Positions 1-31,090 of a DNA stretch of 35,543 bases are shown here, piece after piece. The first letter of the stretch is position 1. The number at the start of each line of letters is the position of its first letter. Source of the stretch: an uncultured virus (IMG/VR IMGVR_UViG_2841629896_000002) (Duplodnaviria > Heunggongvirae > Uroviricota > Caudoviricetes); IMG/VR virus record IMGVR_UViG_2841629896_000002. One strand, given 5' to 3'. The notes below the pieces were generated by a model. It searched no databases. It was not told the DNA's origin and worked only from the letters and a program-made list of their open reading frames with translations. A program made the position numbers and the translations under genes.

Positions 1-1
1 T

Positions 2-4739: not shown

Positions 4740-4740
4740 A

Positions 4741-5450: not shown

Positions 5451-5459
5451 TTGTATAAC

Positions 5460-7271: not shown

Positions 7272-7318
7272 AACGAACTCCTTGGTAATAGAGGTTTTTC
7301 ATTGACACTCTAAAGAGT

Positions 7319-7659: not shown

Positions 7660-8199
7660 ATGGTAACAGGTTTTTTACACGGTGTTGAAGTCGTCGAGGT
7701 TGACGACGGCACCCGCCCCCTTCGTGCAGTTCAGTCTGGCGTTATCGGAATTATCGGCACAGCACCTGATGCTGATGAACAAGCCTTTCCTCTTAACACA
7801 CCGGTTTTGGTAGCGGGCTCTCTTTCACAAGCCGCAAAACTCGATAAAACGGGTAAGCGTCAAGGTACATTACCCAATGCCCTTGATCTCATTTTCAAGC
7901 AAGTAGGCGCAATTGTCGTTGTCATCCGTGTGCAAGAAGGTGACAACGAAAATGCAACACTCACCAATATTCTAGGTGGTGTAAACGCAAATGGCGCTTA
8001 TGAAGGCGTTCATGCTTTCATTGGAGCACAATCCATTGTAGGACAAACACCACGTATTCTGATTGCTCCAGGCTTTACACATCAGCGCCCTTCCAGCGTT
8101 GGTATTGAAGGGAATGAAACTAGTGCAACTGCCAACCCTGTAGCAGCAGAACTGATTGGCATTGCAGAGCGCCTGCGCGCTATTGTGGTGCTTGATGCT
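7660..8199 (+). CDS. Tail sheath protein (P2 FI-like), 5' part, interrupted
   Basis: FLHGVEVVEV...FPLNTPV...PRILIAPGF; sheath-like sequence ends at AIVVLDA and resumes at 23765. Confidence 0.92.
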
Positions 8200-8214
8200 A
8201 GCAACACATTGATT
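8184..8214. other. attL of element 2: tgtggtgct-tgatgct-agcaacaca plus IHF box (8202-8214)
   Basis: 8/9 inverted arms around a 7-bp spacer; imperfect direct repeat of 23749-23773; reverse-complement aatcaatgtgttg matches the IHF consensus. Confidence 0.8.
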
Positions 8215-8374
8215 TTTATATATAATTTACTGTTTTGCATATTGAATTAAAGCCCCGAATATAGTAAGATTTTCTTATTCTAAACCCTCTCAGATTGAAT
8301 CAATTCATATCACTTGCTTGCACGTCAAAAGCGGGGCTGGTGTGTGGGTAAAATTTATACAAGAAAGGACTAAA

Positions 8375-9541
8375 ATGGCTCTTATGAACCGTCTTAATGC
8401 AAGATCTGTCGCAACATTGGGGGCTGGCAAATATAATGATGGCGCCGGCTTGTTACTTCATAAGCGTAAAGATGGAGGTGTTCAATGGATTTTACGGTAT
8501 ACCCTTCACGGACGCCGTCGTGAAATGGGATTGGGAGCGTTGCGAGATGTCTCTTTAAAAAAAGCACGTGAATTGGCAAACCAATGGCGGGCTGTTTTAC
8601 GTGAGGGGCGTGACCCTATTAAAGAACGCAACAAACAAAAGCGTGAGGCAATGCGCAATCTCCATTACTTAAAAGATATTGCTCTAGATGCTTTTGAAAG
8701 CCGTAAAGCTGAATTAAAGAATGATGGTGAGGCTTGTAATTGGTTTTTACATTTACGCCTCCATATTCTCCCTAAATTAGGCTGTCTACCCGTTTCAGAG
8801 ATTACACAAACAGAGATACGCGATACCCTTGCCCCTATTTGGCATACAAAAGCTGGAACTGCTCGAACAGCACTGATGCGTCTTAATCTTTGTCTCAAAC
8901 ATGCGGCTGCATTAGGGTTAGATGTTGATTTACAAGCAACAACAAAAGCACGCGCTCTTTTAGGCAAACAACGTCATAAAAAACAAAGCTTACCAGCCAT
9001 GGATTGGAGAGATGTGCCGGCTTTTTACCAATTTCTCTGTAAAACAACAACTATAAAACATTTAGCTTTGCGTCTGCTTATTCTGACAGGTGTCCGTACT
9101 AATCCTTTACGTCATATTCATAAAGATCAAGTTGATGGCGATATATGGACTATTCCTGCTGAAAATATGAAAGGAAAGCGTGATGCTACAACAGAGTTTC
9201 GCGTGCCCCTATCATCTGAAGCAATAAAAATAATTGAACAAGCCCGCTGTATCTCTAAAAGTGATTTCATCTTTTCACTTACCGGTCGTGGTCCTCTTTC
9301 ACATACGATGATGGCAGCGTATATGAGAAAAAATAAAATTGAAGCCTGCCCCCATGGTTTTCGCTCTAGTTTACGCGATTGGCTTGCTGAAACAACCGAT
9401 GCCCCCTATGAGGTCGCTGAAACCATTTTAGCTCATACGGTAGGCGGACAAGTAGAGCGTGCCTATCGTCGGACTGACTATTTAGAACAGCGTCGTGTCT
9501 ATATGGATAAATGGGCGGCTTATGTCACTGGTCAATCTTAA
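8375..9541 (+). CDS. int: P4-family tyrosine integrase with arm-binding domain
   Basis: KYNDGAGL..RRREMGLG; LTGVR; HGFRSS; LAH; AYRR. RBS aagga before ATG 8375. Confidence 0.95.
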   Translation: MALMNRLNARSVATLGAGKYNDGAGLLLHKRKDGGVQWILRYTLHGRRREMGLGALRDVSLKKARELANQWRAVLREGRDPIKERNKQKREAMRNLHYLKDIALDAFESRKAELKNDGEACNWFLHLRLHILPKLGCLPVSEITQTEIRDTLAPIWHTKAGTARTALMRLNLCLKHAAALGLDVDLQATTKARALLGKQRHKKQSLPAMDWRDVPAFYQFLCKTTTIKHLALRLLILTGVRTNPLRHIHKDQVDGDIWTIPAENMKGKRDATTEFRVPLSSEAIKIIEQARCISKSDFIFSLTGRGPLSHTMMAAYMRKNKIEACPHGFRSSLRDWLAETTDAPYEVAETILAHTVGGQVERAYRRTDYLEQRRVYMDKWAAYVTGQS

Positions 9542-9544
9542 GAT

Positions 9545-9576
9545 ATGGGGTGCATAACCCCATGATCTGTGGATAA
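9545..9576 (+). promoter_or_regulatory. Hairpin after int plus DnaA-box match (tgtggataa 9568-9576)
   Basis: atgggg...ccccat stem; exact reverse complement of TTATCCACA. Confidence 0.4.
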
Positions 9577-9749
9577 CTTTAGCTCTCTCCTCTCTCATTC
9601 GCTCTCAATAAGACTCATAAATTATCACATGAGAAATTATATGATAAAATATTGTTTTCTATAAATAAAATACCTTCAAAAATAAACCAAAATGTGCTTA
9701 ATAAATAGGCATGATTTGGTTCTATTTTTTATTATGAAAGGATTTTAAA

Positions 9750-9950
9750 ATGACCGAAAATGATATTCTTTTAACAGACCGTGAAAGTGCAAAATTGCTT
9801 CATATGAGTGTCTCAACATTCCGCCGTCATGTCACCAATGGCTCTCTCCCAAAACCTTTAAAATTTGGTTTTTTATCCCGTTGGTTACAATCGGATCTCT
9901 TGAATGTAATCGAGCAAGCGAAACAGCAACGTCAAAGTGACGCGGCATAA
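9750..9950 (+). CDS. AlpA-family regulator / excisionase
   Basis: 66 aa; MSVSTFRRHV..GSLPKPLKFG..SRW. Confidence 0.88.
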   Translation: MTENDILLTDRESAKLLHMSVSTFRRHVTNGSLPKPLKFGFLSRWLQSDLLNVIEQAKQQRQSDAA

Positions 9951-9956
9951 AAAAAA

Positions 9957-9985
9957 CCTTGTCACGTAAGGACGGACAAGGCTTT
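9957..9985 (+). terminator. Hairpin after AlpA
   Basis: ccttgtc...gacaagg followed by cttt. Confidence 0.4.
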
Positions 9986-10048
9986 CTCAAACTCATCACC
10001 TCAGAGATAGCACAATCCGTCCTGTGACGCAACGTTATAGGATTTAAA

Positions 10049-10252
10049 ATGATGTGTTCTTTTAAGAATGCGCGGGGTATTACACGCGCTGTGCCGAGGG
10101 TTTGGCATGGGCGTTATGGAAGCCAACCAATCAAAAAGACTTTAGCTAATTTTACCTTTGCTACGCGTGCTTATAGCCAAGCCTTTGAGGTCCTTATGAG
10201 GCAAGCCCCGCATAACGCATATTTTAACGATCTCCTCTATTTTCTAAGGTAA
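10049..10252 (+). pseudogene. Short ORF, possibly an internally deleted primase remnant
   Basis: RBS agga; sits between AlpA and YfjI where satellites encode primase. No Zn-finger or Toprim motif remains. Confidence 0.3.
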
Positions 10253-10257
10253 ATAAC

Positions 10258-11832
10258 ATGAGACAAGATAACAAAAATATTTTAGAGAATAATACGCCTT
10301 TAAATGATAATACTTGTTTAGAAGCCATTCCTTATAAACAAGCATTGCAACAAAACGGTTGGGGGGAAATAAAGCCTATCACGGCGGCTCTCTTACCCGT
10401 CGAGCCTTTTGACCCATTACAACTCCCAATGCCATTTATGGATTATGTTTATGACGTTTCAGAGCGTCAACAAGCCCCTATGGATTTTATTGCTGTCTCT
10501 GCTCTCTGTGCCTTGGCTGCTGTCATTGGCAATGGCGTGCGGGTTGCCCCAAAACAATATGATGATTGGATTGTGGTGCCTAATCTCTGGGGGGCTCTTA
10601 TTGGTCAATCATCAACATTCAAAACACCAGCCATGAAAGCCGCTTTAACTCCTATCACTTGCCTTCAAAAGAAATGGTATAAAGACTGGTTAAAACAGAA
10701 AGAAAAACAACAAATTGAAGAGAGGTTTGAAACTTTAGACAAACGAGAAAAGGAAAGACAAGCCAATAAAGCAATAAAAAAAGGAGATCTTGAAACAGCC
10801 CGTGCTCTTTTGTCTGAAACCCTCTCTAAAGACAATGTGCATGATGATGATGTCTCTCGTTTTATTGTCAATGATGTGACCGTTGAAAAGCTTGGGGAAC
10901 TCTTAAAAGAAAACCCCCGTGGTCTCTTGATGGTGCGTGATGAACTGGCTGGTTTTTTAGCTAATCTAGAAAGAAAGGAATATCAAACAGACCGTTCCTT
11001 TTATTTAACAGCTTTTAATGGAGATGATCAATTTACCTATGACCGTATAGAGCGTGGAACCATTTTTATCCCTTATGTCACTTTATCCATAATTGGAGGC
11101 ATTCAACCTTCACGCCTTATTCCCCTCATTCAAGCCATACAGCGTGGAATAAACGATGATGGTCTTATGCAACGCTTTCAAATGATTGTCTGGCCCGATG
11201 ACAATAAAGAATGGCAAGTGATTGATAGACCGCCCAATCAAGAGGGCTGGCAAAAGTATGAAGGGGTATTTCGTTCTTTTCGTGATAAACGCTTAGGGTC
11301 TCCAGAAAAGCCGCTGATCATGCGTTTTTCTCCTAAAGCACAAGTGCAATTTTATGAATGGTTGGAACATCTTCATAAAGAGGCAAAAGGAGGTAGTCAC
11401 TCAGAAAGTTTACAATCGCATCTTTTAAAAATGCCTAAGACCATAGCAAGCCTTGCGTTGATTTTTGAACTTCTTGATGGTGGTCGTTTTGAAATTGGAC
11501 CCTATGCCATCACAACAGCCTTGCGTTGGACAAGTTATCTATTAAGTCATGCCAAACGTCTTTATGCGGCGGGGGATAATTTAGCAACAGAGGGGGCAAA
11601 ATTGATTGTCGAGCGTTGTGATCATTTACCCGATGTTTTTACAGCAAGAGATATCTATAGACGCTGTTGGCATTCTTTAAAAGACAAAGAAGTCGTTAAA
11701 CAAGCTATAGAGCTTTTATGCCGTTGTAACTATATTCGTGAATTTCCTATAGAGGGCAATGAATTAGGTCGGCGTCCAGATAGACGTTATGAATGGCACC
11801 CTTTCGTCAAAAACAACAGCATCAAACAATAA
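10258..11832 (+). CDS. YfjI / DUF3987 family replication-associated P-loop protein
   Basis: PNLWGALIGQSSTFKTPA, DVTVEKL, RDELAG, GGIQP, DDGLMQRF; C-terminal GRRP winged-helix-like tail. Confidence 0.88.
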   Translation: MRQDNKNILENNTPLNDNTCLEAIPYKQALQQNGWGEIKPITAALLPVEPFDPLQLPMPFMDYVYDVSERQQAPMDFIAVSALCALAAVIGNGVRVAPKQYDDWIVVPNLWGALIGQSSTFKTPAMKAALTPITCLQKKWYKDWLKQKEKQQIEERFETLDKREKERQANKAIKKGDLETARALLSETLSKDNVHDDDVSRFIVNDVTVEKLGELLKENPRGLLMVRDELAGFLANLERKEYQTDRSFYLTAFNGDDQFTYDRIERGTIFIPYVTLSIIGGIQPSRLIPLIQAIQRGINDDGLMQRFQMIVWPDDNKEWQVIDRPPNQEGWQKYEGVFRSFRDKRLGSPEKPLIMRFSPKAQVQFYEWLEHLHKEAKGGSHSESLQSHLLKMPKTIASLALIFELLDGGRFEIGPYAITTALRWTSYLLSHAKRLYAAGDNLATEGAKLIVERCDHLPDVFTARDIYRRCWHSLKDKEVVKQAIELLCRCNYIREFPIEGNELGRRPDRRYEWHPFVKNNSIKQ

Positions 11833-11944
11833 AGAAATCTTCTTTAAAAACTTTCTACTCAAAGAGACAAAACTCTTTTTAATGGCATTCTTATCAAGGA
11901 ATTTTTCTCCAAAGATAATGATCTAAGTAACTTTATAGGAAGAG

Positions 11945-12150
11945 TTTTGTCATTTTTGTCAGTTCTGTCAGTCCTTTTTAGACCCTATAATTATTTTTTC
12001 AAATGAGTGAAAATTAAAAACATTATTTTTCAATATGTTAGTATTTTTAAGATACAACTTATATCAATGATACAACCTTAAATACAATCAATAATATATA
12101 TTTGTCAGTTATCTGTCAGTAAATTGAACTGACAAAAGTGATTATTTTAT
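11945..12150 (+). repeat. Iteron-like block (tgtcag/ctgaca repeats), left arm of ~200-bp inverted repeat
   Basis: Reverse complement matches 17965-18178, e.g. tgtcagttatctgtcagtaaattgaac. Confidence 0.85.
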
Positions 12151-12439
12151 GCCTTATAAAACCTATCAAAATACTCATTCCGATATCTTAAAGCACATAG
12201 TGCATTTGTCTTGATTAATCCGTGAAACGAATAGCAAATTTTACTACTTTGCTGATCTTACGCTGTGTCATAGGCTGTGGATAAATAGCCTTTAAAAATC
12301 CCTTTTGAAAAAAATTATCCGTTTTTTCGCATTTTTCTGCATTTTTTCTCAATTCGTTCAAAATAGATTTAATAAGCTTCATTTTGATTCTTTTGAAAAG
12401 AATTAACCCTCTCATACCAAAACGGAGCTCTGTTATAAT

Positions 12440-15400
12440 ATGCTGCAATCTCTTAAGTCTGATCATGAACATGTCACGCTACGCTCTCTGTTGGAATATT
12501 ATCGTCAACAAGCAAAATCACCCCGTGAATTGGGAACGCTGTTTGAAAACCTTGTAAAGGTTTATTTAGCTGAAGACCCGTTGCAAAAGCAAGAATACGA
12601 AAAGGTTCAAACTTATTTGGAATGGGCTAAGGAACATGATGAAGATGGGCGTGATATTGGTATTGATTTGGTCGCTACAATCCGTGATCAAGGAGGATAT
12701 GCGGCTATTCAATGTAAATGCTATGATGCTTCTCACATCATTAAAAAAGAAGATATTGATAGCTTTATCGCTGCCTCAGGCAAAAAGATTTTTACGCGTC
12801 GTATTCTCGTTGATAGCACCGAAAGCAATTGGAGTGATAATGCTAACAACACTTGTGATGGTCAAGAAGTTCGTATTCAACAGATTAATCTGTTTGATTT
12901 AGAAAACAGTCAAATCGATTGGGGCGCTTATAAAGAACGAGGACAAGCCGTCCTTAAAGAGCAACCGAAAAAAAAGCTTTTAGATCATCAGATAGAAGCG
13001 CTTGAAAGAGTTTGTGAAGGTTTAAAAGAAGCAGACCGTGGCAAGCTTATTATGGCATGTGGTACGGGTAAAACATTCACCAGTCTTAAGATAGCAGAAA
13101 CCATAGCAGGAAAAGGCAAGCGTGTGTTGTTTTTAGTGCCCTCCCTTGCTTTGATGTCACAAACAATCCGTGAATGGACCCTTGATACAGAAATCCCCTT
13201 GCGTTCCTTTGCGGTGTGTTCGGATACACAAGTAGGCAAACGTCGTAAAAGTAAACAGGATGATGAATCGGGTCTTGATGCATCAGATCTTGTCTTGCCG
13301 GCGACCACGGATTCACAAGAGCTTGCGCGTAAAGCCAATAAGACCTCTCTTGATGTGATGACTGTGGTCTTTTCAACTTATCATTCCATTCAAGTGATTT
13401 CGGATGCACAAAAGGAATATGATTTACCCGAATTTGATCTGATCATTTGTGATGAAGCACACCGTACGACTGGGGTTGTATTGGGAACAGACAAGCATGA
13501 ATCTGAATTTATCAAGGTTCATGATAACAGCATCATACGGGGTAAAAAACGTCTGTATATGACTGCAACGCCTAAGATCTTTGCTGATAGTGCCAAAAAA
13601 CAAGCCCATGAGATGAATGGTATTCTGGCGTCTATGGATGATGAAGCGCTTTATGGAAAAGAGCTTTACACTTACACATTCTCAAAAGCCGTTAAGAATG
13701 AACTCTTAGTTCCTTATAAAATTATTATCTTAGGCGTTAATGAAGAGGAAGTCTGTGAATCCATTCAACATCTGATGACCGATGAGAATTATGAACTTAT
13801 CCTTGATGATAAAACCAAGATCATAGGCTGTTATCAAGCCCTTGCTAAAATAGATCTGAAGGTTGATTTGAGTGATGACCCTAACCCTATGCGTCGGGCT
13901 TTGGCTTTTTGTAAAGATATCAAGACTTCTGAACGTATCCGTGACACATTCAATTCTCAAGAAATACAGAAAGAATTATATAATCTTCATAAGCTCTATA
14001 AAGAGACGCCGCCTCTTCAGTGTACCTTTGCTCATATTGATGGAACGCAAAGTGCCAAGAAGCGCAATGAAGCCCTTGATTGGTTAAAGGAAGATGCGGG
14101 GGAAAATACTTGTCGTGTGCTGACCAATGTAAGATGTCTTTCTGAGGGTGTTGATGTTCCTGCTCTTGATGCGATCATGTTTTTACACCCGCGCAAAAGC
14201 CAAGTGGATGTGATACAGGCGGTGGGGCGTATCATGCGCCGTGCCAAAGGCAAGAAAAGAGGCTATATCATTTTACCCGTTGGGGTGCCGGCTGGGATTT
14301 CTGCTGAAGAAGCTTTAAAATACAACAAGAGATACAGTGTTGTCTGGCAAGTGATCAATGCTTTGCTTGCTCATGATGAGAATTTCGAAATCACCCTTAA
14401 CCAGATGATTTTAGGGCAAGACGTTAGTGATGTTTTGGAGATTAGCGCCTTAAAGAGCATGACAGCGGTTGAGGATAAAATCTATGTTTATGAGAAACCA
14501 GAAAGCGCGGGGCTTGAGATTGGAAAAGCAGCCTATGAACCACAAAAATACATTCATAGTGTTACAGGAAGATTACCCTTTTATAAAGAGTTTCCCAATG
14601 CCCTTAAAACCCTTTTGGCTAAGAAATTTACCCTTGCCGATTACTGGGGCATATGGGCTGGCAATGTTGCTGAAATTGCACAAAACCATATCACCCATCT
14701 TCAAAACCTGCTTGCTGATGAAAACAGTGAAGCCTTTCACGCCTTTGATGCATTTCATAAAGAACTAAAAAACAACTTAAACAGTGAAATAAAACAAGAG
14801 GAAGCGCTTGAGATGTTAGGACAACATCTTGTCACGCGTCCCGTGTTTGAAGCCTTGTTTGAGGGCAATGAATTTGTGCAAAACAATGCCATTTCGCAAG
14901 CCATGGAAAAGATTTTAGCTGAGTTGGATAAAACCAATATCAAGCAAGTATCAAAAGAGTTACAAGAGTTTTATGACAGTGTGAAATTCCGTGCCTCTGG
15001 GATTACCTCCCCCCAAGCAAGACAAAACCTTATTATCAAGCTTTATGAAGATTTTTTTACCAAGGCATTTAAGAAAACCACCGATAGGCTTGGGATTGTT
15101 TATACCCCCGTTGAGGTTGTTGATTTTATCATTCATTCTGTTGATGATGTGTTGCGTAAAGAGTTTGGCAAAAGCTTGGGGTCACGGGGTGTCTCCATTC
15201 TCGACCCTTTCACGGGAACGGGTACCTTTATCACAAGGCTTTTACAATCAGATCTCATCAAACCAGAGGATATGGAATATAAATTCCGTCATGATATCCA
15301 TGCCAATGAGATTGTCTTACTTGCCTATTACATAGCAGCGATTAACATTGAATCGACGTATCATAGTCTGATGAAAGGAGATTATATTCCCTTTAAGCAT

Positions 15401-17347
15401 ATTGGTTTGGCTGATACATTCCGGATGCTTGAAGAAAAGAACCTGCTACAGGAATTATTCAAAGAAAACAGTGAATATTTAGAGCATCAAAAGAAACTGG
15501 ATATCCAAGTTATCTTTGGTAACCCTCCTTATTCGGTAGGTCAAAAAAGCGCTAATGACAATGCAAAAAACACTCCCTATCCCATATTAGATGACCGTAT
15601 CCGTGAAACTTATGCTACTTATTCAACAACAAGTTTATTACAAGCACTTTATGATAGTTATATTCGTGCCATTCGTTGGGCTAGTGACCGTATTAATAAT
15701 GCTGGCGTAATTGGCTTTGTTACAAACGCGGGTTTTATTGATGGAAGTTCTATGGATGGTTTACGCAAGTGCCTCGTTGAGGAATTTAGCAGCCTTTATA
15801 TTTTCCATTTACGGGGCAATCAACGAACGTCTGGAGAACTTTCGCGAAAAGAAGGCGGCAAGATTTTTGGTTCTGGCTCTCGTGCCCCTATAGCGATTTC
15901 TATTTTGGTTAAAAATCCAAATGCACAACCACGTGGTAAGATATATTTTCGGGATATTGGAGATTATCTCAATAGAAAAGAAAAGCTTACGATAATTGAA
16001 AAATTTAGGAGTATTGATGGCATTACACGAAGTAAAAAAGGTTGGCAAATAATTACACCAGATAAACATGGAGATTGGATAAAACAAAGAGAAGCCGATT
16101 TTAATCGGTTTATACCCATGGGTATTAAAAATAACTCGATAGATGCTGCGCTATTTAGGGAAGTGTCACGTGGTGTGAATTCTGCTCGAGATGCTTGGGT
16201 TTATAACTTTTCAAGTAATGCATTAAATTTATCTATTCAAAAAACAATTGAATTTTTTAATATACAAAAACGTCTTATTGCTGAGAATCCATCTGTACCT
16301 ATAAGGAAGATTATTGATTATGATGCTACCAAAATTAGTTGGGCAAATGCTCTTATCTCTAAATTAAAGCAAGGAAGCAACGCAACTTTTGACGTTCATT
16401 TAAAGGTTCCAGTTCTTTATCGCCCGTTTATGATAACATGGCATTATGCATCACCATTACTAAATGAAGCGCTAGGGAAAACTCATCAATTTTTTAATCA
16501 GGATATCCCCCATAACCTTGGAATTTGCATTTCGGGAGAAGGAAGTCAAAAAGCTTTTTCTTGTCTCATGACAAATAAGCCTATTAGTTTTGACACATTA
16601 GAAAAATCAAGATGCTATCCGTTTATGCTCTATTGTGAAGAAAAAAAACATCATGACCATAGCTTATTTATGACAAATGAAAAAAAGAAAATTCGTGATG
16701 GCATTACAGATGCGGGATTAGCACGTTTTAAAGTTGCTTATCCTAATGAAACTATAACAAAAGAAGATATCTTTTATTATGTTTACGGTCTACTTCATTC
16801 AGAAGATTATCGCGCCCGTTATGCACATAATTTATGCAAAGAATTGCCTCGTATTCCTTGTGTTAAAAGTGCTAGTGATTTTTGGAAATTTGTAACAGCA
16901 GGACGTGAATTGGGTCATTTGCATGTGAATTATGAAGATGTAGAACCTTATCCAGTAACCTTTAAAAAGGGTAATCCAAAACAGACAGAGATCTCTAATC
17001 CCGAAAAATTCTATTATGTGACCGAAATGAAATTCGCAAAAGCAGGTAAAGAGAAAGATAAAACCACTGTTATTTATAATAGCAATATCACAATAACAGA
17101 TATCCCTCTTGAAGCTTATAAGTATATCGTCAATGGTAAACCCGCTCTTGAATGGGTTATGGGACGTCAATGTGTAAAGACGGATCAAAAGAGTGGCATT
17201 GTGAATGATGCCAATCGCTATGCTGTTGAAACCGTTGGCAACCCCGCCTACCCTCTAGAGTTATTTCAAAGGGTTATTACCGTAAGTTTAGAAACAATGA
17301 AAATCGTAAAAAACTTACCAAAATTAGAAATAAGAGAAACTGAATAA
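12440..17347 (+). CDS. Type ISP restriction-modification enzyme (LlaGI/LlaBIII-like)
   Basis: Mrr-like GIDL...IQCK, SF2 helicase (MACGTGKT, DEAH, TAT, QAVGRIMR), adenine MTase (DPFTGTG, GNPPY), TRD and ISP-type C-terminus in one 1635-aa chain. Confidence 0.93.
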   Translation: MLQSLKSDHEHVTLRSLLEYYRQQAKSPRELGTLFENLVKVYLAEDPLQKQEYEKVQTYLEWAKEHDEDGRDIGIDLVATIRDQGGYAAIQCKCYDASHIIKKEDIDSFIAASGKKIFTRRILVDSTESNWSDNANNTCDGQEVRIQQINLFDLENSQIDWGAYKERGQAVLKEQPKKKLLDHQIEALERVCEGLKEADRGKLIMACGTGKTFTSLKIAETIAGKGKRVLFLVPSLALMSQTIREWTLDTEIPLRSFAVCSDTQVGKRRKSKQDDESGLDASDLVLPATTDSQELARKANKTSLDVMTVVFSTYHSIQVISDAQKEYDLPEFDLIICDEAHRTTGVVLGTDKHESEFIKVHDNSIIRGKKRLYMTATPKIFADSAKKQAHEMNGILASMDDEALYGKELYTYTFSKAVKNELLVPYKIIILGVNEEEVCESIQHLMTDENYELILDDKTKIIGCYQALAKIDLKVDLSDDPNPMRRALAFCKDIKTSERIRDTFNSQEIQKELYNLHKLYKETPPLQCTFAHIDGTQSAKKRNEALDWLKEDAGENTCRVLTNVRCLSEGVDVPALDAIMFLHPRKSQVDVIQAVGRIMRRAKGKKRGYIILPVGVPAGISAEEALKYNKRYSVVWQVINALLAHDENFEITLNQMILGQDVSDVLEISALKSMTAVEDKIYVYEKPESAGLEIGKAAYEPQKYIHSVTGRLPFYKEFPNALKTLLAKKFTLADYWGIWAGNVAEIAQNHITHLQNLLADENSEAFHAFDAFHKELKNNLNSEIKQEEALEMLGQHLVTRPVFEALFEGNEFVQNNAISQAMEKILAELDKTNIKQVSKELQEFYDSVKFRASGITSPQARQNLIIKLYEDFFTKAFKKTTDRLGIVYTPVEVVDFIIHSVDDVLRKEFGKSLGSRGVSILDPFTGTGTFITRLLQSDLIKPEDMEYKFRHDIHANEIVLLAYYIAAINIESTYHSLMKGDYIPFKHIGLADTFRMLEEKNLLQELFKENSEYLEHQKKLDIQVIFGNPPYSVGQKSANDNAKNTPYPILDDRIRETYATYSTTSLLQALYDSYIRAIRWASDRINNAGVIGFVTNAGFIDGSSMDGLRKCLVEEFSSLYIFHLRGNQRTSGELSRKEGGKIFGSGSRAPIAISILVKNPNAQPRGKIYFRDIGDYLNRKEKLTIIEKFRSIDGITRSKKGWQIITPDKHGDWIKQREADFNRFIPMGIKNNSIDAALFREVSRGVNSARDAWVYNFSSNALNLSIQKTIEFFNIQKRLIAENPSVPIRKIIDYDATKISWANALISKLKQGSNATFDVHLKVPVLYRPFMITWHYASPLLNEALGKTHQFFNQDIPHNLGICISGEGSQKAFSCLMTNKPISFDTLEKSRCYPFMLYCEEKKHHDHSLFMTNEKKKIRDGITDAGLARFKVAYPNETITKEDIFYYVYGLLHSEDYRARYAHNLCKELPRIPCVKSASDFWKFVTAGRELGHLHVNYEDVEPYPVTFKKGNPKQTEISNPEKFYYVTEMKFAKAGKEKDKTTVIYNSNITITDIPLEAYKYIVNGKPALEWVMGRQCVKTDQKSGIVNDANRYAVETVGNPAYPLELFQRVITVSLETMKIVKNLPKLEIRETE

Positions 17348-17387
17348 CTTATAAAGCATGCTCACATAATGGGTATTATAAACGCAT

Positions 17388-17426
17388 AAGGGGTATAGGG
17401 TCTTATAACAGTCTATACCCCCTTTA
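17388..17426 (+). terminator. Hairpin after Type ISP gene
   Basis: ggggtatag...ctatacccc followed by ttt. Confidence 0.5.
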
Positions 17427-17964
17427 TACATTGCTTACATACAATCTTTAAAAGGATAATTTATCATGCGTTATTCTAAAAAGAAATCATTTGCACTTTT
17501 AGATACTCTACTTTGGATTGCTTTAAGACTTTTAAGAAATCCACTCTTAAAGTGAATTAGATTTTTTTACATTGCCTTTAAGAGGTTATACCGTAATCTA
17601 AAATGAGTGCTTTATTGTTTTCAAAAGCTTTGTTTAAAGAGAGTTATATATATTCATTTTCTTATATTACTTATAGGTTTTGTAGGTTCTTACCCCCCCC
17701 CCAAAACCCCTACAAAACCCCTTTTTATATATATCATAGATTGTATTCACAGATTGTATTTAATATAGGTTGTTTCTTTAAAACATTAACATATTGAAAT
17801 ATAATGATTTTTATTTCTAATTAAAAAATAAAATAATACGTACAAAAGCACCCCCAAAACTCATAACCTAATGATCTTGATAGCATTTCTTATGAGTTAC
17901 AAGCTATCTTTTGAAGGTTTTAAAAGGTCATACGCTTTTCATAAGACACGTTTTAATGACTTAC

Positions 17965-18178
17965 TAAAATAATCCAATTTGTCGGTTCAATTTACTGACA
18001 GATAACTGACAAGTTTTAATCAATTCACATCATGGGTTATCTTTAAAGATTGTATTTTTGATATGGGTTGTGTTTTAAAGACATTAACATATTGAAATAT
18101 AATGTTTTTAATTTTTACTCATTTAAAAAAAATAATAGAGGGTCTAAAAAGAACTGACACAACTGACAACACTGACAC
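17965..18178 (-). repeat. Iteron-like block, right arm of inverted repeat
   Basis: actgaca repeated at both ends of an AT-rich spacer; inverse of 11945-12150. Confidence 0.85.
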
Positions 18179-18694
18179 GGTCTATTAAAAAGTATTTTTC
18201 TGATCTCTATAATTATCAGTTTCTCTTTAAATGTTTTCATAACAGTCTATAAATCGTAATTATCCTATTTATCGTTTCTCTTATGAAAATGAAAAATGAT
18301 GCGGTGGCTATAAAGAACATAACAGTTATAAAGAATGCGTAAAAACAGCAAGGTTTTATAATCATAATGCAAATGAAAGGGTTGGTTATAAGAGCGCGGT
18401 GCCTATTAAGATAGTGCAAATGATAAATGCGTTATAAACAAAATTCACAAAAAAATTAAAATTCATTTAGTAAAAAAATTTATAGGTTATAAAGATAAAA
18501 ATACGCATTATGAGAGCGTTTCTAAATATTATAAATGTATAGATTCAAAAAACAACGCAATCGTTTGATAAAGCCTATAATATAGCTTTAAATGCATATA
18601 AATATAAAAGAAGCACTTCATAAGCATAGGATATTATCAATACACAACGTATCTAAAAAAATACAAAAAAATATCAAAAAAGATATAATATTAA

Positions 18695-18723
18695 TTGACA
18701 ATAAATACGTATTTTGTTATATA
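18695..18723 (+). promoter_or_regulatory. Sigma70-type promoter for c4-like leader / LbH array with palindromic operator
   Basis: ttgaca-17 bp-tatata; palindrome aaatacgtattt (18703-18714) in the spacer. Confidence 0.6.
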
Positions 18724-18837
18724 AATACTCAAGTGATTAAAAACCACGAAGCAAACAGCGGATAGGTTACGAAACAGCCTCTCCCATTCTTTAAAATACT
18801 GACTTTCTTTTATGCTATCATTGGCATATAACGATTT

Positions 18838-18922
18838 TGTCGGGTGTGCTTATACCATACAATACCCTTTCGAGGGAAAAGTATAAGCAACGGACTGTTT
18901 GCCGTGTTTTTAGCACCCGATG
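18838..18922 (+). ncRNA. c4/CI-like antisense RNA, copy 2 (satellite-borne)
   Basis: Stem gtcgggtg...cacccgat. ctgtttgc and gtgtttttag are complementary to 18738-18758 and 18941-18960. Confidence 0.65.
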
Positions 18923-18969
18923 CCTTTATGGGCTGTCAATTAAAAACATTATTCAAACAGGATTTAAAT

Positions 18970-19767
18970 ATGACAAATATTTCAAAAATTACCCCCGTTA
19001 ATAAGAAAAAAACATCTAAAAAATACGAATTTACAGATGAAACGCGTGTATTTGGTAATCATACTCTTTATCGCATTAAAGCATTAAAAGACTTTGCTGA
19101 TGTTAAAGCGGGGGATCTAGGCGGCTTTATTAAAGATGAGAGTGATCTGTCTCATGATGGCAATTGCTGGGTTTATGATGATGCTATGGTTATCCAAGCA
19201 AGCGTTTCCGAAAATGCCAAAATACGCAATAATGCCTGTGTTTTGAATTATGCTAGGGTTTATGGTAATGCCGTGATTAGTGATAAGGCATGGGTTTTGA
19301 GTGATAAAGCACGTGTTTATGACAATGCAATCATTAATGGCAATGCAAAAATTGGGGGCTATGTTTTTGGCAATGCCGTTGTGAGTGATAATGCCGTTAT
19401 TACAGAGGGGGCTCTTATTTACGATAACGCCCGTGTTTATGAAAATGCTCATGTGAGTGGGCTTGTGTTTAATGATGCCCATGTCTACGGTAAATCACGC
19501 CTTGCTACGTGGTCAAAAGCTTATGGGAATGCTCATGTTTTTGATAAGGCTATAGTTTATGGCGGTAGCAATATTTATGATAATGCCAAGGTTTCTGGCT
19601 CGGCGCGTGTTGGTCCCTTTGCAAACATTCATGATAATGCGCATGTTTATGGCAAGGCACAAATTTGCCAATTTACAACGATTTATGGCAATGCGGTGCT
19701 TAATGAAAATAAGAAATTTTCTGAAGATGTCTGTAGTGCTGATCAGGCTATAAATAACGCTGCGTAA
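18970..19767 (+). CDS. Hexapeptide-repeat (LbH) protein 1 of array 2
   Basis: Conserved head plus hexapeptides; ATG 18970 after RBS agga. Confidence 0.85.
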   Translation: MTNISKITPVNKKKTSKKYEFTDETRVFGNHTLYRIKALKDFADVKAGDLGGFIKDESDLSHDGNCWVYDDAMVIQASVSENAKIRNNACVLNYARVYGNAVISDKAWVLSDKARVYDNAIINGNAKIGGYVFGNAVVSDNAVITEGALIYDNARVYENAHVSGLVFNDAHVYGKSRLATWSKAYGNAHVFDKAIVYGGSNIYDNAKVSGSARVGPFANIHDNAHVYGKAQICQFTTIYGNAVLNENKKFSEDVCSADQAINNAA

Positions 19768-19849
19768 ATAATGGCGCGGGCGCGGCGGGGGCGCCCCTCT
19801 TTAACCATCTCATTTTAAAATTTAAATCTTTTTATAAAGGAATTGTGCT

Positions 19850-20533
19850 ATGCAAAAGAAGTTTGCACTCACAAATGAGACACGTGTATTTAATCATAAA
19901 ACTCTTTATCGCATTAAAGCATTAAAAGACTTTTCTGATGTTAAAGCTGGTCAATTGGGCGGCTTTATTGAAAGTGAAAACAATCTCTCTCATGATGGCA
20001 ACTGCTGGGTATATGATAATGCTCTTGTTTTAAATCCAGCCCATATTTATGAAAATGCCAAGGTTTTTAATAACGCTATTATAATGGGTACTGTTTATGG
20101 CAATGCTCATATCTGTGATCGCGCCCGCGTTTATGCAAATGCTCATGTTTATGACAATGCGCATCTTTCTAATAATGCTTGGGTCTGTGGGCGGGTTTAT
20201 GGCAATGCAAAATTATCAGGAAATGCGCGTATTTATGGCAATGCCGTGGTTTATGATCATGCTGTTATCAGTGGTGCTGCTAAAATTTATGGCAAGGTTT
20301 ATGGCAAGGCTAGCGTGGGTGGGTATACTCAAGTCTACGGTTCTGTTTATGGCAATGCGAAAGTGACTGGTTATCACACCATTAGAGGTTTGGTGCATGG
20401 CAATGCAAGGTTAAAAAGAGATGGTTATTCATATGTCAAACAAAACTTTTACTATGCATATGGGATTCCTGAAGATTGTGAAATTTATGAAAATGATACC
20501 GTTGTAAAGATTAGTGAAAGTAACGCTGCTTAA
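19850..20533 (+). CDS. Hexapeptide-repeat (LbH) protein 2 of array 2
   Basis: Same head motif, YGNA repeats. Confidence 0.85.
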   Translation: MQKKFALTNETRVFNHKTLYRIKALKDFSDVKAGQLGGFIESENNLSHDGNCWVYDNALVLNPAHIYENAKVFNNAIIMGTVYGNAHICDRARVYANAHVYDNAHLSNNAWVCGRVYGNAKLSGNARIYGNAVVYDHAVISGAAKIYGKVYGKASVGGYTQVYGSVYGNAKVTGYHTIRGLVHGNARLKRDGYSYVKQNFYYAYGIPEDCEIYENDTVVKISESNAA

Positions 20534-20612
20534 ATAACGTGCGAGCGCGGCGGGGGCGCCCCCTTTAAAAATCTCATTTTAAAATTTAATCTTCTTATAA
20601 AGGAATTGTGTT

Positions 20613-21143
20613 ATGCAAAAAAAGTTCGCACTCACAAATGAAACGCGTGTATTGGGTAATCATACCCTTTATCGTATCCAAGCATTAAAAGACTTTTCTG
20701 ATGTTAAAGCTGGTGCCTTGGGGGGCTTTATTGAAAGTGAAAGCAACCTCTCTCATGATGGAAATTGCTGGGTCTATGATGATGCCATTGTATTTAAAAA
20801 TGGTCATGTTTATGAAAATGCAAGGGTTTATAACAATGCTATCGTGGCTGGTTATATCTATGGGAATGCCCATGTGTATGGCAAGGCTGCTGTTTCTAAT
20901 AATTCCCATGTCTATGGTAATGCTCATGTCTATGGCAATGCTATTATTTATGATAATGCCTATATTTATGACAATGCTAGGGTTTATGAATACGCTCGTA
21001 TAGCAAATGACGTGCATATTTTTGAAAATGCTCATATCCATGGCATTGCTGTTATTCGTGAAAATGTCGGCGGGTCTACTAAAATAAAAACCTATACTGA
21101 ACGTCTCTCTCCTTATGGCGAGTTAGAAATTGTCTGGGTTTAA
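20613..21143 (+). CDS. Hexapeptide-repeat (LbH) protein 3 of array 2
   Basis: Same head motif, YGNA repeats, distinct C-terminus. Confidence 0.85.
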   Translation: MQKKFALTNETRVLGNHTLYRIQALKDFSDVKAGALGGFIESESNLSHDGNCWVYDDAIVFKNGHVYENARVYNNAIVAGYIYGNAHVYGKAAVSNNSHVYGNAHVYGNAIIYDNAYIYDNARVYEYARIANDVHIFENAHIHGIAVIRENVGGSTKIKTYTERLSPYGELEIVWV

Positions 21144-21249
21144 TCAATAAAGCAGCGGCGGGCGTTGTGGGGGCGCTTGCTTTCAAACCAAATTTTTCCA
21201 TTCCAAATTTTAGAAAACGTTTAACACATTAGATTGTGAGGGTACCCCT

Positions 21250-22029
21250 ATGTGTAAAAAATACGAATTAACCAATCAAATTAAACAAATTAAAGAGAGA
21301 CTTACTAAGCAAATTATAAACCTTTATCGCATTCGGGCTTTAAGGGATTTTGATGATGTCAAGGCGGGTGCTTTAGGTGGTTTTATTGAAAAGGAAGTCA
21401 ACCTATCCCATGATGGCAATTGCTGGGTCTATGATGATGCTTGTGTCTATGGTCATGCCCGTGTTTATGATGATGCAAAAATACGCCATTATTCGCAAGT
21501 CTGTGGTCTGGTTTATGGCAATGCTGAAGTCTATAGTAAGGCTTTTATCTCTCAATATGCAAAGATTTATGATCAGGCTTGTGTTTATGGGAGTGCTCAT
21601 GTGTATGGCAATGTTTATGGCAATGCTCATGTGAGTGGTGCTGCCCGCGTTCTTGCTGATGCTCATATTTATGACCATGCGCATGTTTCTTATGATGCTA
21701 CGGTTTTTAGTTATGCCCGCGTCTATGGTCATGCTAGGGTTTGTGGCTCTGCTTGCATTTATAGCCATGCGAAAATTTATAATTATGCTGTGATTAATGG
21801 TCGTGCAAAGATTTATGGCAAGGTCTATGGCAATGCGCGCGTGGGGGGCTCTTGTGAGATTTATGGCTCTGTTTATGGTAATGCAAAAATCTCACATTGT
21901 GCAACGATCTGGGGGCGTGCTTATGGCAATGCAACAATCAACACAAAAAGCAAAGCAAAGTTAGTTCCTAAAAATTATGAGGTTTATCAAAGCGATAATG
22001 TCGTTAAGATTATTGATAAAACAGAATAA
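21250..22029 (+). CDS. Hexapeptide-repeat (LbH) protein 4 of array 2
   Basis: Near-identical to 1404-2183 beyond about residue 22. Confidence 0.85.
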   Translation: MCKKYELTNQIKQIKERLTKQIINLYRIRALRDFDDVKAGALGGFIEKEVNLSHDGNCWVYDDACVYGHARVYDDAKIRHYSQVCGLVYGNAEVYSKAFISQYAKIYDQACVYGSAHVYGNVYGNAHVSGAARVLADAHIYDHAHVSYDATVFSYARVYGHARVCGSACIYSHAKIYNYAVINGRAKIYGKVYGNARVGGSCEIYGSVYGNAKISHCATIWGRAYGNATINTKSKAKLVPKNYEVYQSDNVVKIIDKTE

Positions 22030-23748
22030 AAATAGGTATGGGGGTGCCTTCTTTATGGCTATAAACCCATCATAAAAGAGAGAATTCATAAAAGAAAGCC
22101 GTGCCAACTGATATGACGCGGCTTTCTAATGTCTATCCTTATGAATCAACCCTAATCAAGGTAATGACACATATATACAAAACATATCTATTACAAGCGC
22201 TCTATTAGAGATATGAAAACTTATCAAAAGGAACGTAAATGATGTATATGATCTTTAATCACTCACTTGAATGAGAGAGCCTATAAGCGCTTTTTGTTAC
22301 TCTCAAACGTATTAATCATAACACCCTCCTTTGTGAGGGGGGTTTTTAAAACAAAGCCCATGATCACAATGCTTCTTTTAAAACGTTTCAATAGACTGAC
22401 CTTAAAATTGAGTTGAGTGAATTGAGTAAAATTGAAACAACTTACATTCTAAAAATCAAAACGCTTTTTAGATTCATCTCAATACAATCAAAAGAAAATG
22501 CATCTTAAATGAATGTCTTATAAAAACGTTCTTTTTACATTTGCAAACGCTGGTTTTTAAAACAAGCTCTCATAAGATAAATAAACAACCGCTTTTATCA
22601 AATGGAAGGTTTTAAAAACTATTATAAACATTAGTTTCAAACGTTTAAACGTTCATTTAGAAAGGCTCTCATAAGCGTATTTTCACTTTTCATTAAATGT
22701 AACTTTTTACAAATAAGCTGGCTCAATTTTGAGTTGGCAAAATCAACCAGCTCAAATTCGAACTCGTTATCTTTAGAATAGAGTATTCTTTAATATTATA
22801 GCTCTTATCTAAAAATTTAGAAAAATCTCATGCCTTATGATGTTACAACGGTTTTGAATTTTACTTGCTTATCTTTGTCTAAAATAGATGCCCTCAAATT
22901 TGAGGAGACCTCTTTTGGTTTCATATTTTAAAACGATAACTTTTAAAACGTTTTTTATACCTGTCTAAGGTATATAGTATTCTACTTCTATGGCATTATG
23001 CGCCTCCATTTTTTTAGGGAAGCGAATATAGTTCTGTTCTTCAAAACTAGCCTGCAATCTATTCATTAAAAGGCTTTTCATTTCATAAGATATAAAAGAC
23101 CTCTTTATCGTTTTCTAAACTTTTAGAAAGCGTTTAAAAGCGATCTTATCCTTAATCCTTTTATGCAATCTTTATAAATTAAACCTATAAGCTTATGACA
23201 GTTTCAAACAGTTAATTTCTTTAATGCCATTTTAAAGGTTTTTCCCAATTGGGGAAAAATTATATGATCTGTATTTTCTATAAATGCGTATCTTTTGATA
23301 CAATTTACCTTATAACAGTTTCAAACGATTACCCTCTTATAGAATGATCTAATATTGCTATAACACTCTTTAGATTTTGCGCTCGCCAATTTTGGCGAAC
23401 GTTAATATGCGATTAACAATCCAATCTTTAAAACAAGCTGTGATCTTTAAACGTATGTTATCGATAATTCCAAACGACTAAATTTTTAAACAATGCGATT
23501 TGTGCTGTGATAAAAACGTATCATAAAATTTATGAACTGTTATGAATGATATCTGCTTTTCATTTCATTTGAACGTTTACATGCGTTATAATATTTGCAC
23601 CATGATTTGCTTTTTATGATCTATTCATACATGGCAATCTTCTATAAAAAATGGTCAAATGAATCACGTATAAAAGTGTGGATTCCTAAGTGGATTCATA
23701 TAAAATAATTTTACATAATATATTGATTTTTCTATATTTTATATAATA
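22030..23748. repeat. ~1.7-kb ORF-free tail, direct repeat of 2184-3826
   Basis: Long identical tracts, e.g. gcaatctattcattaaaaggcttttcatttcataagatataaaa. Confidence 0.85.
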
Positions 23749-23773
23749 TGTGGCGCCGGGTGCTCCAAACACA
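23678..23773. other. attR of element 2: gtggattc x2 (23678, 23690), IHF box (23716-23728), core tgtggcgcc-gggtgct-ccaaacaca
   Basis: Imperfect repeat of attL; sheath frame resumes at 23765. Confidence 0.8.
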
Positions 23774-24436
23774 ACAGATGAAGCAGCCCTTAGCACAGCA
23801 AAGGATTTTGATTCAAAACGCGCTATTCTCATTGACCCGTTTGTAAAGATAAATCGTGATGGCAAAATCATAGAACAGCCCGCGAGTGCAGTGGTTGCTG
23901 GTGTCATTGCCAAAAATGATTTTACTCATGGCTTTTGGCATTCCCCTTCTAATAAAGTGATCAATGGAATTGTGGGAACTGCGCGCCCCATTGATTTTTC
24001 CATTGGTGACAGATCAAGCCGTGCCAACCTTCTCAATGAACAAAACATCACAACCATTATTCGCGAAAATGGCTATCGTCTCTGGGGCAATCGCACACTC
24101 TCAAGCGATACAAAATTTGCTTTTTTATCCGTGGTGCGCACCGCAGATATGATCAATGATGCTATTTTGCGCGGACACCTATGGGCTGTCGACCGCAATA
24201 TCAAAAAAACGTACATGCATGATGTGAGTGAAAGCGTCAATGCTTATTTGCGTGATTTGAAAGCACAAGGCGCTATTCTTGGTGGGCGCTGTACGCCTGA
24301 TCTAGAGCTTAATACAGCAAGCGCCATTGAAAGCGGCAGAGTCTATTTCAATGTGGAATTTACCCCGACAACACCCGCAGAACACATCACGTTCCGTTCA
24401 CAAATCATCAATGATTACCTAGAGGAGATCTTTTAA
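23765..24436 (+). CDS. Tail sheath protein, 3' part
   Basis: PNTTDEAA...GFWHSPSN...GYRLWGNRT...GAILGG...PAEHITF. Confidence 0.92.
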   Translation, partial: PNTTDEAALSTAKDFDSKRAILIDPFVKINRDGKIIEQPASAVVAGVIAKNDFTHGFWHSPSNKVINGIVGTARPIDFSIGDRSSRANLLNEQNITTIIRENGYRLWGNRTLSSDTKFAFLSVVRTADMINDAILRGHLWAVDRNIKKTYMHDVSESVNAYLRDLKAQGAILGGRCTPDLELNTASAIESGRVYFNVEFTPTTPAEHITFRSQIINDYLEEIF

Positions 24437-29384: not shown

Positions 29385-29422
29385 GCCAAATTAGCAAAAA
29401 TGTAAAAAATCTCGAAAGCCGC

Positions 29423-29560
29423 TTGACAATATGGCGAAAATATGAATAATCGAATCAGGTGCCTAAGAAACACTTTAAATACACAGCGGATAGATTGCCG
29501 ATACAATCTTTTCTCCGCCGATTAAAAACTTTGACTCGTTATATGTTACACGCATATAAT
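29423..29560 (+). promoter_or_regulatory. Tandem promoters of c4-like leader
   Basis: ttgaca 29423; ttgact 29531 / tataat 29555 (18-bp spacer); mirrored upstream of copy 1. Confidence 0.55.
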
Positions 29561-29565
29561 GGTTT

Positions 29566-29648
29566 TGTCGGGTGTGGCTGTGCCATAAAATACCCTTTTG
29601 GGAAAAGCATAGCGACGGACTGTGTACCGTGTTTCTTAGCACCCGGCA
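29566..29648 (+). ncRNA. c4/CI-like antisense RNA, copy 3
   Basis: ctgtgta (29620) and gtgtttcttag (29629) are complementary to 29463-29486 and 29667-29688. Confidence 0.7.
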
Positions 29649-29697
29649 CTCTCTTTAGAGTGTCAATAAGAAACTTCTAACTACACAGGGGTTCATC

Positions 29698-30438
29698 ATG
29701 AACACACTTATAGAAATTAGAGAAAGCACTGCTAATAGTGTTAGCACTCAGACTATGTCTAGTCGTGAGATTGCTGAATTGTGCGGTAAACAACACACGC
29801 ATATTATGCGTGATATTCGAAAAATGTTAGGAGAATTATACTCTGAAAGTACTGAATCCAAATTTGGATTGAGTGAATTTACAGGGTTATACAAAGATTC
29901 AACAGGTCGCACTCTCCCTTGTTATAACCTTCCTAAGCGTGAATGTTTAATTCTTGTTTCTGGTTACAGCACCGCCTTACGAGCAAAGATAATTGACCGA
30001 TGGCAAGAGTTGGAAAGGCAGGTAGCAACACCACAAGTTGACTACTCCAAACCCGAAGCATTGCTTGGTGTTTTGAATCATCTACAAAGCCAAATCGAGC
30101 AAAAAGACCATGTTATTGCAGAACTAACTCCAAAAGCAGAAGCTTTAGAAGGTTTAAAACGTTCTGATGGGTTGTTTGGTTTAATCGAAGCAGCAAAAAT
30201 GTTAGAGGTGCGACCAAAGGATTTAACGGATTATTTGCGTAAACATGATTGGGTCTATCGACGTGCTCCAGGGGCGCCTCTATTACCTTATCAGGATAAA
30301 ATCAAGAAAGGATTCATGGATTGCCCTGCTATCACCATTCAAAGACCGGATGGTACAGAAAAGGTACTCCCTTCAACGAAAATCACATCGAGAGGATTGG
30401 CATGTTTAAGAGAACAAATCCATGGAGGTGTACAATGA
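29698..30438 (+). CDS. Phage antirepressor, Rha-type N-domain plus KilAC (ANT) C-domain
   Basis: MSSREIAELCGKQH.HIMRDIR...YNLPKRECLILVSGYS..LRAKIIDRWQELE. Confidence 0.9.
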   Translation: MNTLIEIRESTANSVSTQTMSSREIAELCGKQHTHIMRDIRKMLGELYSESTESKFGLSEFTGLYKDSTGRTLPCYNLPKRECLILVSGYSTALRAKIIDRWQELERQVATPQVDYSKPEALLGVLNHLQSQIEQKDHVIAELTPKAEALEGLKRSDGLFGLIEAAKMLEVRPKDLTDYLRKHDWVYRRAPGAPLLPYQDKIKKGFMDCPAITIQRPDGTEKVLPSTKITSRGLACLREQIHGGVQ

Positions 30439-31079: not shown

Positions 31080-31090
31080 CTTTGCACTCC

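Follow-up and report, generated by a model that had tools for sequence, protein, structure and literature searches.

Which regulator stands before the four beta-helix (LbH) genes of an integrative island in this viral DNA, and is it peculiar to the element that carries it? The window, by which we mean the whole stretch of DNA that was analysed, is 35,543 nt long (IMG/VR record IMGVR_UViG_2841629896_000002). Control of the P1 antirepressor by c4 is textbook knowledge, and the initial annotation had proposed that a satellite co-opted a switch of this type for its LbH array in place of an antirepressor. Our analysis indicates that the segment 18695-18972 is probably the leader of the LbH operon and that it carries a c4-type antisense-RNA switch of the sRNA-Xcc1 family. 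The leader and the genes behind it contain the following features.

18695-18972, plus strand: LbH operon leader, with the probable c4-type switch upstream of ATG 18970.
18695-18725, plus strand: promoter-like TTGACA-N17-TATATA, a pattern match at the 5′ edge of the leader.
18738-18744 and 18751-18758, plus strand: upstream target pair, a1 TAAAAAC and b1 GCAAACAG, a proposed cis decoy for the seeds.
18760-18784, plus strand: hairpin between b1 and the RNA core, from the predicted fold; GGATAG.TTAcCGA.A....CT is conserved in the 16-leader alignment.
18839-18929, plus strand: c4-like small RNA of the sRNA-Xcc1 type (RF02221, 44.0 bits, E 1.9e-6, model positions 1-87 of 87).
18895-18902, plus strand: seed b′, CTGTTTGC, in the loop of hairpin 2.
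18904-18913, plus strand: seed a′, GTGTTTTTAG, in the single-stranded 3′ junction.
18922-18933, plus strand: small hairpin directly 3′ of the RNA core in predicted folds; 16 of 16 leaders have one.
18941-18948 and 18954-18960, plus strand: downstream target pair, a2 TAAAAACA and b2 CAAACAG, complements of the seeds.
18970-19767, plus strand: first LbH gene, a YdcK-type beta-solenoid of 265 aa (Pfam B_solenoid_ydck) and the only gene that the RNA targets touch directly.
19850-22029, plus strand: LbH genes 2-4 (19850-20533, 20613-21143 and 21250-22029), each with its own ribosome-binding site.

The four target sites and both seeds were found exactly where the initial annotation had placed them. 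The downstream pair reaches into the translation start region of the first LbH gene. The Shine-Dalgarno sequence AGGA (18959-18962) ends 7 nt before ATG 18970 and its first two bases are the last two of b2, which itself ends 9 nt before this ATG; the overlap of b2 with the ribosome-binding site is thereby demonstrated. The bipartite pattern TAAAAAC-N(3-30)-CAAACAG occurs three times in the 35.5-kb window, once at each of the two target sites and once, trivially, as the antisense of the seeds. In shuffled windows the same pattern averaged 0.04 occurrences, and three were reached in 0 of 100. The homology claimed for this leader and both prophage ant leaders also held: it aligned end to end, over about 290 nt, with the two ant leaders of the window and with 13 others in the genome. 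When the 16 leaders were aligned from the TTGACA box to the start codon, the variation was concentrated in the loop of hairpin 2 and the junction that follows it.

Promoter patterns were scanned along the leader. TTGACA-N17-TATATA gave one match against 0.38 expected, which is weak by itself, and a stricter promoter scan did not list the match at 18695-18725. TTGAC[AT] was present at equivalent alignment columns in at least 10 of the 16 leaders, a further four rows being clipped at the edge of the supplied sequence. The two classes of leader differ inside. Ant-type leaders show a promoter match (11 of 12) ending 5-6 nt upstream of the RNA, while the promoter scan recognised no internal promoter before the RNA in the LbH-type leader. 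The LbH-type RNA would therefore depend on putative processing. No intrinsic terminator was found in a scan of the LbH leader.

The RNA was then compared with the Rfam models. The initial annotation had pointed to the C4 family, and here the outcome was a different one: RF01695 gave nothing at E≤10, RF02221 matching the RNA instead with 44 bits. The search with RF01695 (cut-off 45 bits) covered the whole genome at E≤10; as controls, the same model scored 68.8 bits on P1 and 53.8 on a Mannheimia phage. The c4-a1b1 model RF03163, which scores 51 bits on P1, had no match at E≤10 in 18400-19100, and the isrK model had none in the window. For RF02221 the match runs over the full length of the model with the same consensus structure and is the best Rfam match of this RNA. 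Its score of 44.0 bits for the copy at 18839-18929 lies below the curated cut-off of 53, and at the gathering thresholds no Rfam family matched anywhere in the window. In the architectural features that were tested the RNA is like c4, but by these model scores it belongs in, or next to, RF02221 and not in RF01695; a family relationship of this kind is demonstrated.

The structured RNA is about 83 nt long, and its outer stem (18839-18847 with 18913-18921) encloses two hairpins. In order to look at the conservation of this fold, a covariance model, R1, was built from the 16 copies of the genome with the structure written from the Rfam alignment. R1 scored 94.9 bits on the RNA at 18839-18929 and gave 58 matches across the window and 40 loci. 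Among these 58 matches, compensatory changes were found at 19 of 24 base pairs, and 96.6% of the cells pair. None of 500 shuffles reached the observed values, and shifted registers paired in only 34-54% of cells. These counts overstate the independence of the changes, since they come from paralogous and otherwise related sequences and from an alignment that was fitted to the model. The structure with its compensatory changes is nonetheless demonstrated.

An RNA-library assembly was also consulted. One contig of 174 nt covers 18819-18988, although contigs of this kind show neither ends nor strand and may derive from DNA. Otherwise only parts of 19005-19687 are covered, and the runs that gave all of these contigs hold at most 0.22 of the sampled words. 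If these contigs represent real RNA, the first LbH gene is at least transcribed. By analogy with P1, the small RNA itself would be made from this leader.

The layout was compared with that of P1 immI. The P1 record is annotated in the order two promoters, a1, b1, the 77-nt C4 RNA, a2, b2 and icd, and the order promoter-a1-b1-RNA-a2-b2-start codon is common to the window leader. Topology is also shared. The second hairpin of P1 c4 has the complement of b2 in its loop, and the complement of a1/a2 follows in the junction 3′ of this hairpin; the window RNA likewise has an outer stem around two hairpins, with b′ and a′ at the same positions. The sites are seven to eight nt long in both. P1 b2 ends 10 nt before the start codon against 9 nt in the window leader, and a1 and b1 are 14 nt apart in P1 and 13 nt in the window. 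Both P1 promoters are upstream of a1/b1, and so is the only recognisable promoter of the window leader. On the other hand, a2 and b2 are 13 nt apart in the window and 29 in P1, hairpin 1 of the window RNA is longer than that of P1 c4 and has a AUACAAUA internal loop, and neither RF01695 nor RF03163 matches the window RNA. A C1 operator is not known for the window leader. The cargo differs as well, being icd-ant in P1 and a YdcK-type LbH gene here, although eight sibling modules do stand before antirepressor genes.

Seeds were also compared with their targets across modules. For this comparison 55 non-duplicate modules were located by the core profile in the genome and in congener loci; L012 and L016 were dropped because the sequence anchor failed, leaving 53 with 28 distinct loop seeds. 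The exact complement of the 7-nt loop seed was present as b1 in 46/53 modules, at -79 to -91 from the core, and as b2 in 47/53, at 25-32 nt after the core-end mark. In the mismatched control, in which each seed was compared with the flanks of other modules, only 22 of 2652 upstream pairs and 3 of 2652 downstream pairs matched. LbH-headed modules in other Bartonella records showed an exact b2 in 40/40 cases and an exact b1 in 24 of the 26 whose upstream sequence was long enough, and all seven LbH modules of the genome have seed-matched targets at fixed positions close to the start codon. Predicted duplex energies agree with these counts. The mean with the a2/b2 region was -15.1 kcal/mol for cognate and -7.5 for non-cognate seeds, and the target region 18941-18962 gave -15.0 kcal/mol with its own seed and -9.4 with the best of the other 15. 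That seeds and targets co-vary is thus demonstrated.

The fact that direct and inverted copies vary together does not on its own distinguish sites in DNA from sites in RNA, and a related island is integrated within such an RNA gene. The repeated words might accordingly act at the DNA level, as protein operators or recombination sites, with no RNA-RNA partners. We regard this as hardly credible, given that the inverted copy sits in a structured RNA whose stems are maintained through G-U pairs and compensatory changes, that this RNA matches the curated RNA family RF02221, and that the layout is that of P1, whose sites are annotated as C4 RNA binding sites.

The antisense switch would work as follows. 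Transcription would start near 18725 and run through the a1/b1 decoys, the RNA and a2/b2 into the first LbH gene. The RNA would be released from this transcript, probably by processing as in P1, and could then pair, in cis and in trans, with a2/b2 on the leader that encoded it or on another of identical sequence. With the Shine-Dalgarno sequence covered in this way, the first LbH gene would not be translated. As long as the leader is unprocessed, its seeds could pair in cis with a1/b1 instead. Predicted folds are consistent with these two states: in the minimum-energy fold of 18720-18975 (z -3.87), a1/b1 are paired with a′/b′, and in the RNA folded without a1/b1 both seeds are exposed.

Another fold raises the question of whether pairing would open the gene instead of closing it. 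IsrK of the Salmonella prophage Gifsy-1 (RF01394, IsrK/AnrP locus) reportedly activates translation. It resembles the window RNA as a phage-borne small RNA from the leader of a regulator gene which pairs with its own longer transcript, and both the P1 record and the Mannheimia phage have isrK-type matches immediately 5′ of C4. When 18836-18990 was folded, the conserved UGUCA at 18934-18938 paired with UGACA at 18971-18975 at the start codon, placing a2, b2 and the Shine-Dalgarno sequence all within the loop, and the GTCAAT motif is kept in 16 of 16 leaders. An RNA acting like IsrK could open this inhibitory hairpin by pairing with a2/b2 and so activate the LbH gene. The hairpin is weak, however, and as read from the alignment only about 4 bp of it are possible in ant-type leaders. 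The isrK model does not match the window RNA. Moreover, b2 overlaps the Shine-Dalgarno sequence, so that pairing should hinder the ribosome; the window layout points to occlusion of the ribosome-binding site, in contrast to the activation by IsrK. In the P1 record a2/b2 are annotated as sites that repress translation of icd-ant, that is, repression is given for the equivalent layout. We therefore consider activation improbable and infer that the c4-type switch represses.

How far such repression would extend was considered next. Bipartite pattern search found no a/b target pair before LbH genes 2-4, each of which is preceded by a G+C-rich palindrome. Since only the first LbH gene has targets, polarity would be required for control of the array as a whole, and a spread to genes 2-4 may be supposed on this condition. 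By analogy with P1, the LbH genes would be silent in the lysogen and transiently expressed on entry or induction, as the initial annotation had suggested; these times of opening are likewise what we infer.

The genome (2.28 Mb, two contigs) contains 16 copies of the RF02221 type, all just under the cut-off. Two of the siblings are located in the window.

7310-7400, minus strand: sibling c4-like RNA (RF02221, 51.9 bits), before an AntA/KilAC antirepressor gene at 7271-6540 (Pfam).
29566-29656, plus strand: sibling c4-like RNA (RF02221, 48.2 bits), before a Rha/KilAC antirepressor gene at 29698-30438 (Pfam).

Eight of the 16 modules are followed by antirepressor genes and seven by LbH genes with a conserved N-terminal domain; the remaining one is decayed and has neither targets nor gene. 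In a tree of the leaders, one branch with 100/100 support splits the seven of the LbH type from the eight of the ant type. The 16 modules have 14 distinct loop seeds, and every (b′, a′) pair is unique. With its own seed pair for each of the 16 modules, the lock would be module-specific, like heteroimmunity.

The decayed module, C1:1010470, keeps its RNA despite the loss of a2/b2 and of the gene, and elsewhere in the chromosome six further a-N-b bipartite matches to the seeds of the window copy were found. Both observations would suit an RNA that acts mainly in trans on other genes, its place before LbH being a relic without regulatory meaning. The six matches are, however, about as many as chance gives for such short motifs, and the co-variation between seeds and targets, seen in 7/7 LbH modules here and in 40/40 in other records, would have been lost in a relic. 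This possibility is judged very remote.

The window copy is carried by a mobile element.

8196-23773, plus strand: integrative island of 15.6 kb, which splits a P2-type tail sheath gene.

The sheath fragments are at 7660-8250 (N-terminal) and 23750-24436 (C-terminal), as compared with the intact paralogue at C1:703883-705091, and an imperfect 13-nt core, TGCT(AGC/CCA)AACACA, is present at 8196-8208 and 23761-23773. Within the island the order is integrase, AlpA-like gene, DUF3987 helicase, Type ISP restriction-modification enzyme, c4-like leader and the four LbH genes, followed by 1.7 kb of ORF-poor DNA at the distal end. The helicase corresponds to phrog_2373, and the AlpA-like gene to HTH_17 with 22.5 bits, below the cut-off of 27 bits. 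A scan of island ORFs of at least 50 aa revealed no head, tail or packaging family. On this gene content the island would plausibly be a phage satellite of a P4-like or PICI-like kind.

Four islands with the same integrase-alpA-DUF3987-Type ISP order exist in the genome, all with an LbH-type leader. The other three LbH modules belong to two prophage-like early regions and a mobilisable plasmid. The plasmid is 41 kb long and carries its module beside ParA, NikA and relaxase genes; the module at C1:760998 is in an annotated prophage-like early region, and we take that at C1:975008 to resemble it, judging by the layout.

As a separate observation, a related island was found to be integrated inside a c4-type RNA gene. 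Such RNA genes were also considered as a regular site of the integrase family; this was rejected, as among the genome's 23 left-end junctions just one, a single case, directly adjoins the 3′ end of a c4-type RNA.

The protein encoded by the first LbH gene matched PF18836 with 70.6 bits (cut-off 30) and the solved YdcK structure (PDB 2f9c/2pig) with an E value of 1.5e-19. It scored 109 bits against the NCBIfam YdcK equivalog, whose cut-off is 350, and because this is so far under the cut-off the protein is regarded as a relative of YdcK and not as an equivalog. Its phrog matches are phrog_5070 and phrog_7964, with 20149 also found in the LbH set, all of them of unknown function. PADLOC assigned the four LbH proteins to no defence family. 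About 41 genes of the genome have the LbH N-terminal domain, in arrays of 2-4. YdcK-like LbH proteins are frequent in phage early regions, and we know of no function for them; a literature search on YdcK and phage found nothing relevant.

The distribution of the module beyond this genome was then examined. In a search with an alignment of the LbH N-terminal domain, the best 80 matches were all from Bartonella records. Among these best matches, an R1 RNA was present upstream on the same strand at 43 of 78 LbH loci and never on the opposite strand, and the first ORF carried the LbH motif in 37 of the 40 complete modules. Outside this set the association was rare. Viral loci with an LbH relative were screened for a c4, sRNA-Xcc1 or isrK match within 700 nt (E≤0.01): none of 20 that came from metagenomes had one, and 2 of 20 from isolates did. 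LbH relatives of a Mannheimia phage, a Xanthomonas phage and Liberibacter phage SC1 have no c4-type RNA before them, and in the Mannheimia phage C4 and isrK matches precede Ant. A blastn search with the leader against 50,697 phage records returned no match.

The RNA family itself is more widespread. RF02221 was detected in 35 of 151 sampled genomes of the phylum, with 1-6 copies in the other 34 versus 16 here. In congeners it was over the cut-off in 11 of 41 genomes, with scores up to 66.4 bits, and as many as 25 copies were counted per genome, roughly 150 over the genus. Among 25 genes downstream of RF02221 in other genera, none was LbH (two ORFs shorter than 50 aa were omitted and two loci were ORF-less) and five were antirepressors of the Bro-N or Rha type. 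At 16 of 29 RF02221 loci in other genera, a seed 7-mer had exact complements both upstream and downstream. Judged from these complements, the a1/b1 plus a2/b2 layout is general for the RF02221 family.

This RNA family is said to have been described first in Xanthomonas integron cassettes, as trans-acting. In the accessible parts of the sRNA-Xcc1 literature the family is treated as a trans-acting or virulence-linked sRNA, and those parts do not describe an a1/b1 plus a2/b2 layout for it. The RNA precedes symE in integron cassettes of Xanthomonas (bioRxiv 10.1101/2025.06.18.660453) and, in APSE phages, an ORF6N gene (PMC7313666), so that cargo other than antirepressors is already on record. Xylella has multiple sRNA-Xcc1 copies beside C4 and isrK matches (PMC12189769), and the c4 and c4-a1b1 motifs are listed by Weinberg et al. 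2010 (PMC2864571). In the literature searched, no paper was found that links Bartonella with C4 antisense RNA or sRNA-Xcc1.

Of the initial proposal, the c4-type switch before the LbH gene stands, as does its P1-like layout of a1/b1 and a2/b2; a co-option peculiar to this element does not. The LbH-type leaders form a clade of their own, which is found in islands, prophage-like regions and a plasmid and in many Bartonella records, indicating an established module and not a co-option by the island itself. The regulator at this locus is of a known kind; its cargo is new and its expansion unusual.

A wider combination of these results may be imagined, which we think unlikely as a whole. LbH proteins would serve mobile elements in the entry phase, for example as antirepressor-like or anti-defence factors; islands, prophages and plasmids of Bartonella would keep them under dozens of orthogonal c4-type locks, and an incoming element would express them only in cells without the same lock. 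Island integrases would, in addition, use the 3′ portion of these tRNA-like RNA genes as their integration site, and an insertion would uncouple the resident lock from the genes behind it.

Should the lock function as it does in P1, the LbH proteins would be regulated like antirepressors, which would point to a role at entry or in immunity. A single 2.3-Mb genome with 16 copies, no two of which share a seed pair, would hold a natural set of orthogonal RNA regulators, and the set of modules in a genome may be a record of which mobile elements can coexist.

Tandem c4-type RNAs, that is, copies of the sRNA-Xcc1-like RNA spaced 270-850 nt apart, were observed in the congener loci L021, L030, L013, L029 and L034, and some of them have no ORF in between. 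This arrangement recalls the clustering of sRNA-Xcc1 copies in Xylella described in PMC12189769. A recombinant leader of an antirepressor (ant) gene was also seen. When the module at C1:698660 (L045, on the chromosome contig C1) was compared with window 29405-29661, the region with its upstream target pair, a1/b1, proved identical to the corresponding region of the window-29566 module; this pair fits the loop seed of the latter module, not the loop seed of L045. Both antirepressor modules of the window are adjoined by toxin-antitoxin pairs (4156-6090 and 30768-31414), with HigB/HigA, Phd-type antitoxin and Gp49/HI1420-type genes.

Successive LbH (YdcK-type beta-helix) genes are separated by a conserved G+C-rich palindrome (GCGGCGGGGGCGCCCC), which could be a terminator or processing site, followed by a conserved A+T-rich spacer. 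The palindromes lie at the following window positions:

19758-19806, G+C-rich palindrome
20523-20571, G+C-rich palindrome
21150-21185, G+C-rich palindrome
48-96, G+C-rich palindrome

The LbH protein of window 143-1306 (387 aa) carries its N-terminal domain twice (encoded at 149-321 and 662-834), as though it had arisen by fusion of two genes of the array. A direct repeat of ~2.5 kb with ~90% identity (window 1348-3823 versus 21194-23748) comprises the final LbH gene together with 1.7 kb that lacks any ORF of at least 50 aa; at its end stands a promoter-like TTGA(C/T)T box that faces outwards. The genome has 7 further places with related right ends. The Type ISP restriction-modification gene (1635 aa) is bracketed by inverted repeats (window 11948-12149 and 17965-18177; 48-135 nt, 84-92% complementary), as if it were a cassette.

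A sister island, whose left arm is identical to that of the window island, sits within a c4-type RNA gene, and its insertion point is the a' seed:

L200 (host locus of the sister island) 105-188, C1:1696304-1696387, interrupted c4-type RNA gene

Next to the integrase gene of the sister island remain the 3′ third of this RNA, its downstream target pair (a2/b2) and, at window 1-2183, an array of LbH genes. The reverse complement of a c4-type 3′ end is present at the right end of the window island (23744-23778, minus strand). Across the genome, a c4-type 3′ end was found at only 1 of 23 left-end junctions.

The window island itself, 15.6 kb in length, interrupts a P2-type tail sheath gene, leaving an N fragment (7660-8250) and a C fragment (23750-24436):

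8196-8208, island end in the sheath gene
23761-23773, island end in the sheath gene

An intact sheath-tube-gpD set, nearly identical to the interrupted one, is located at C1:698935-705091. Therefore, one of two twin prophages is disabled by the island.
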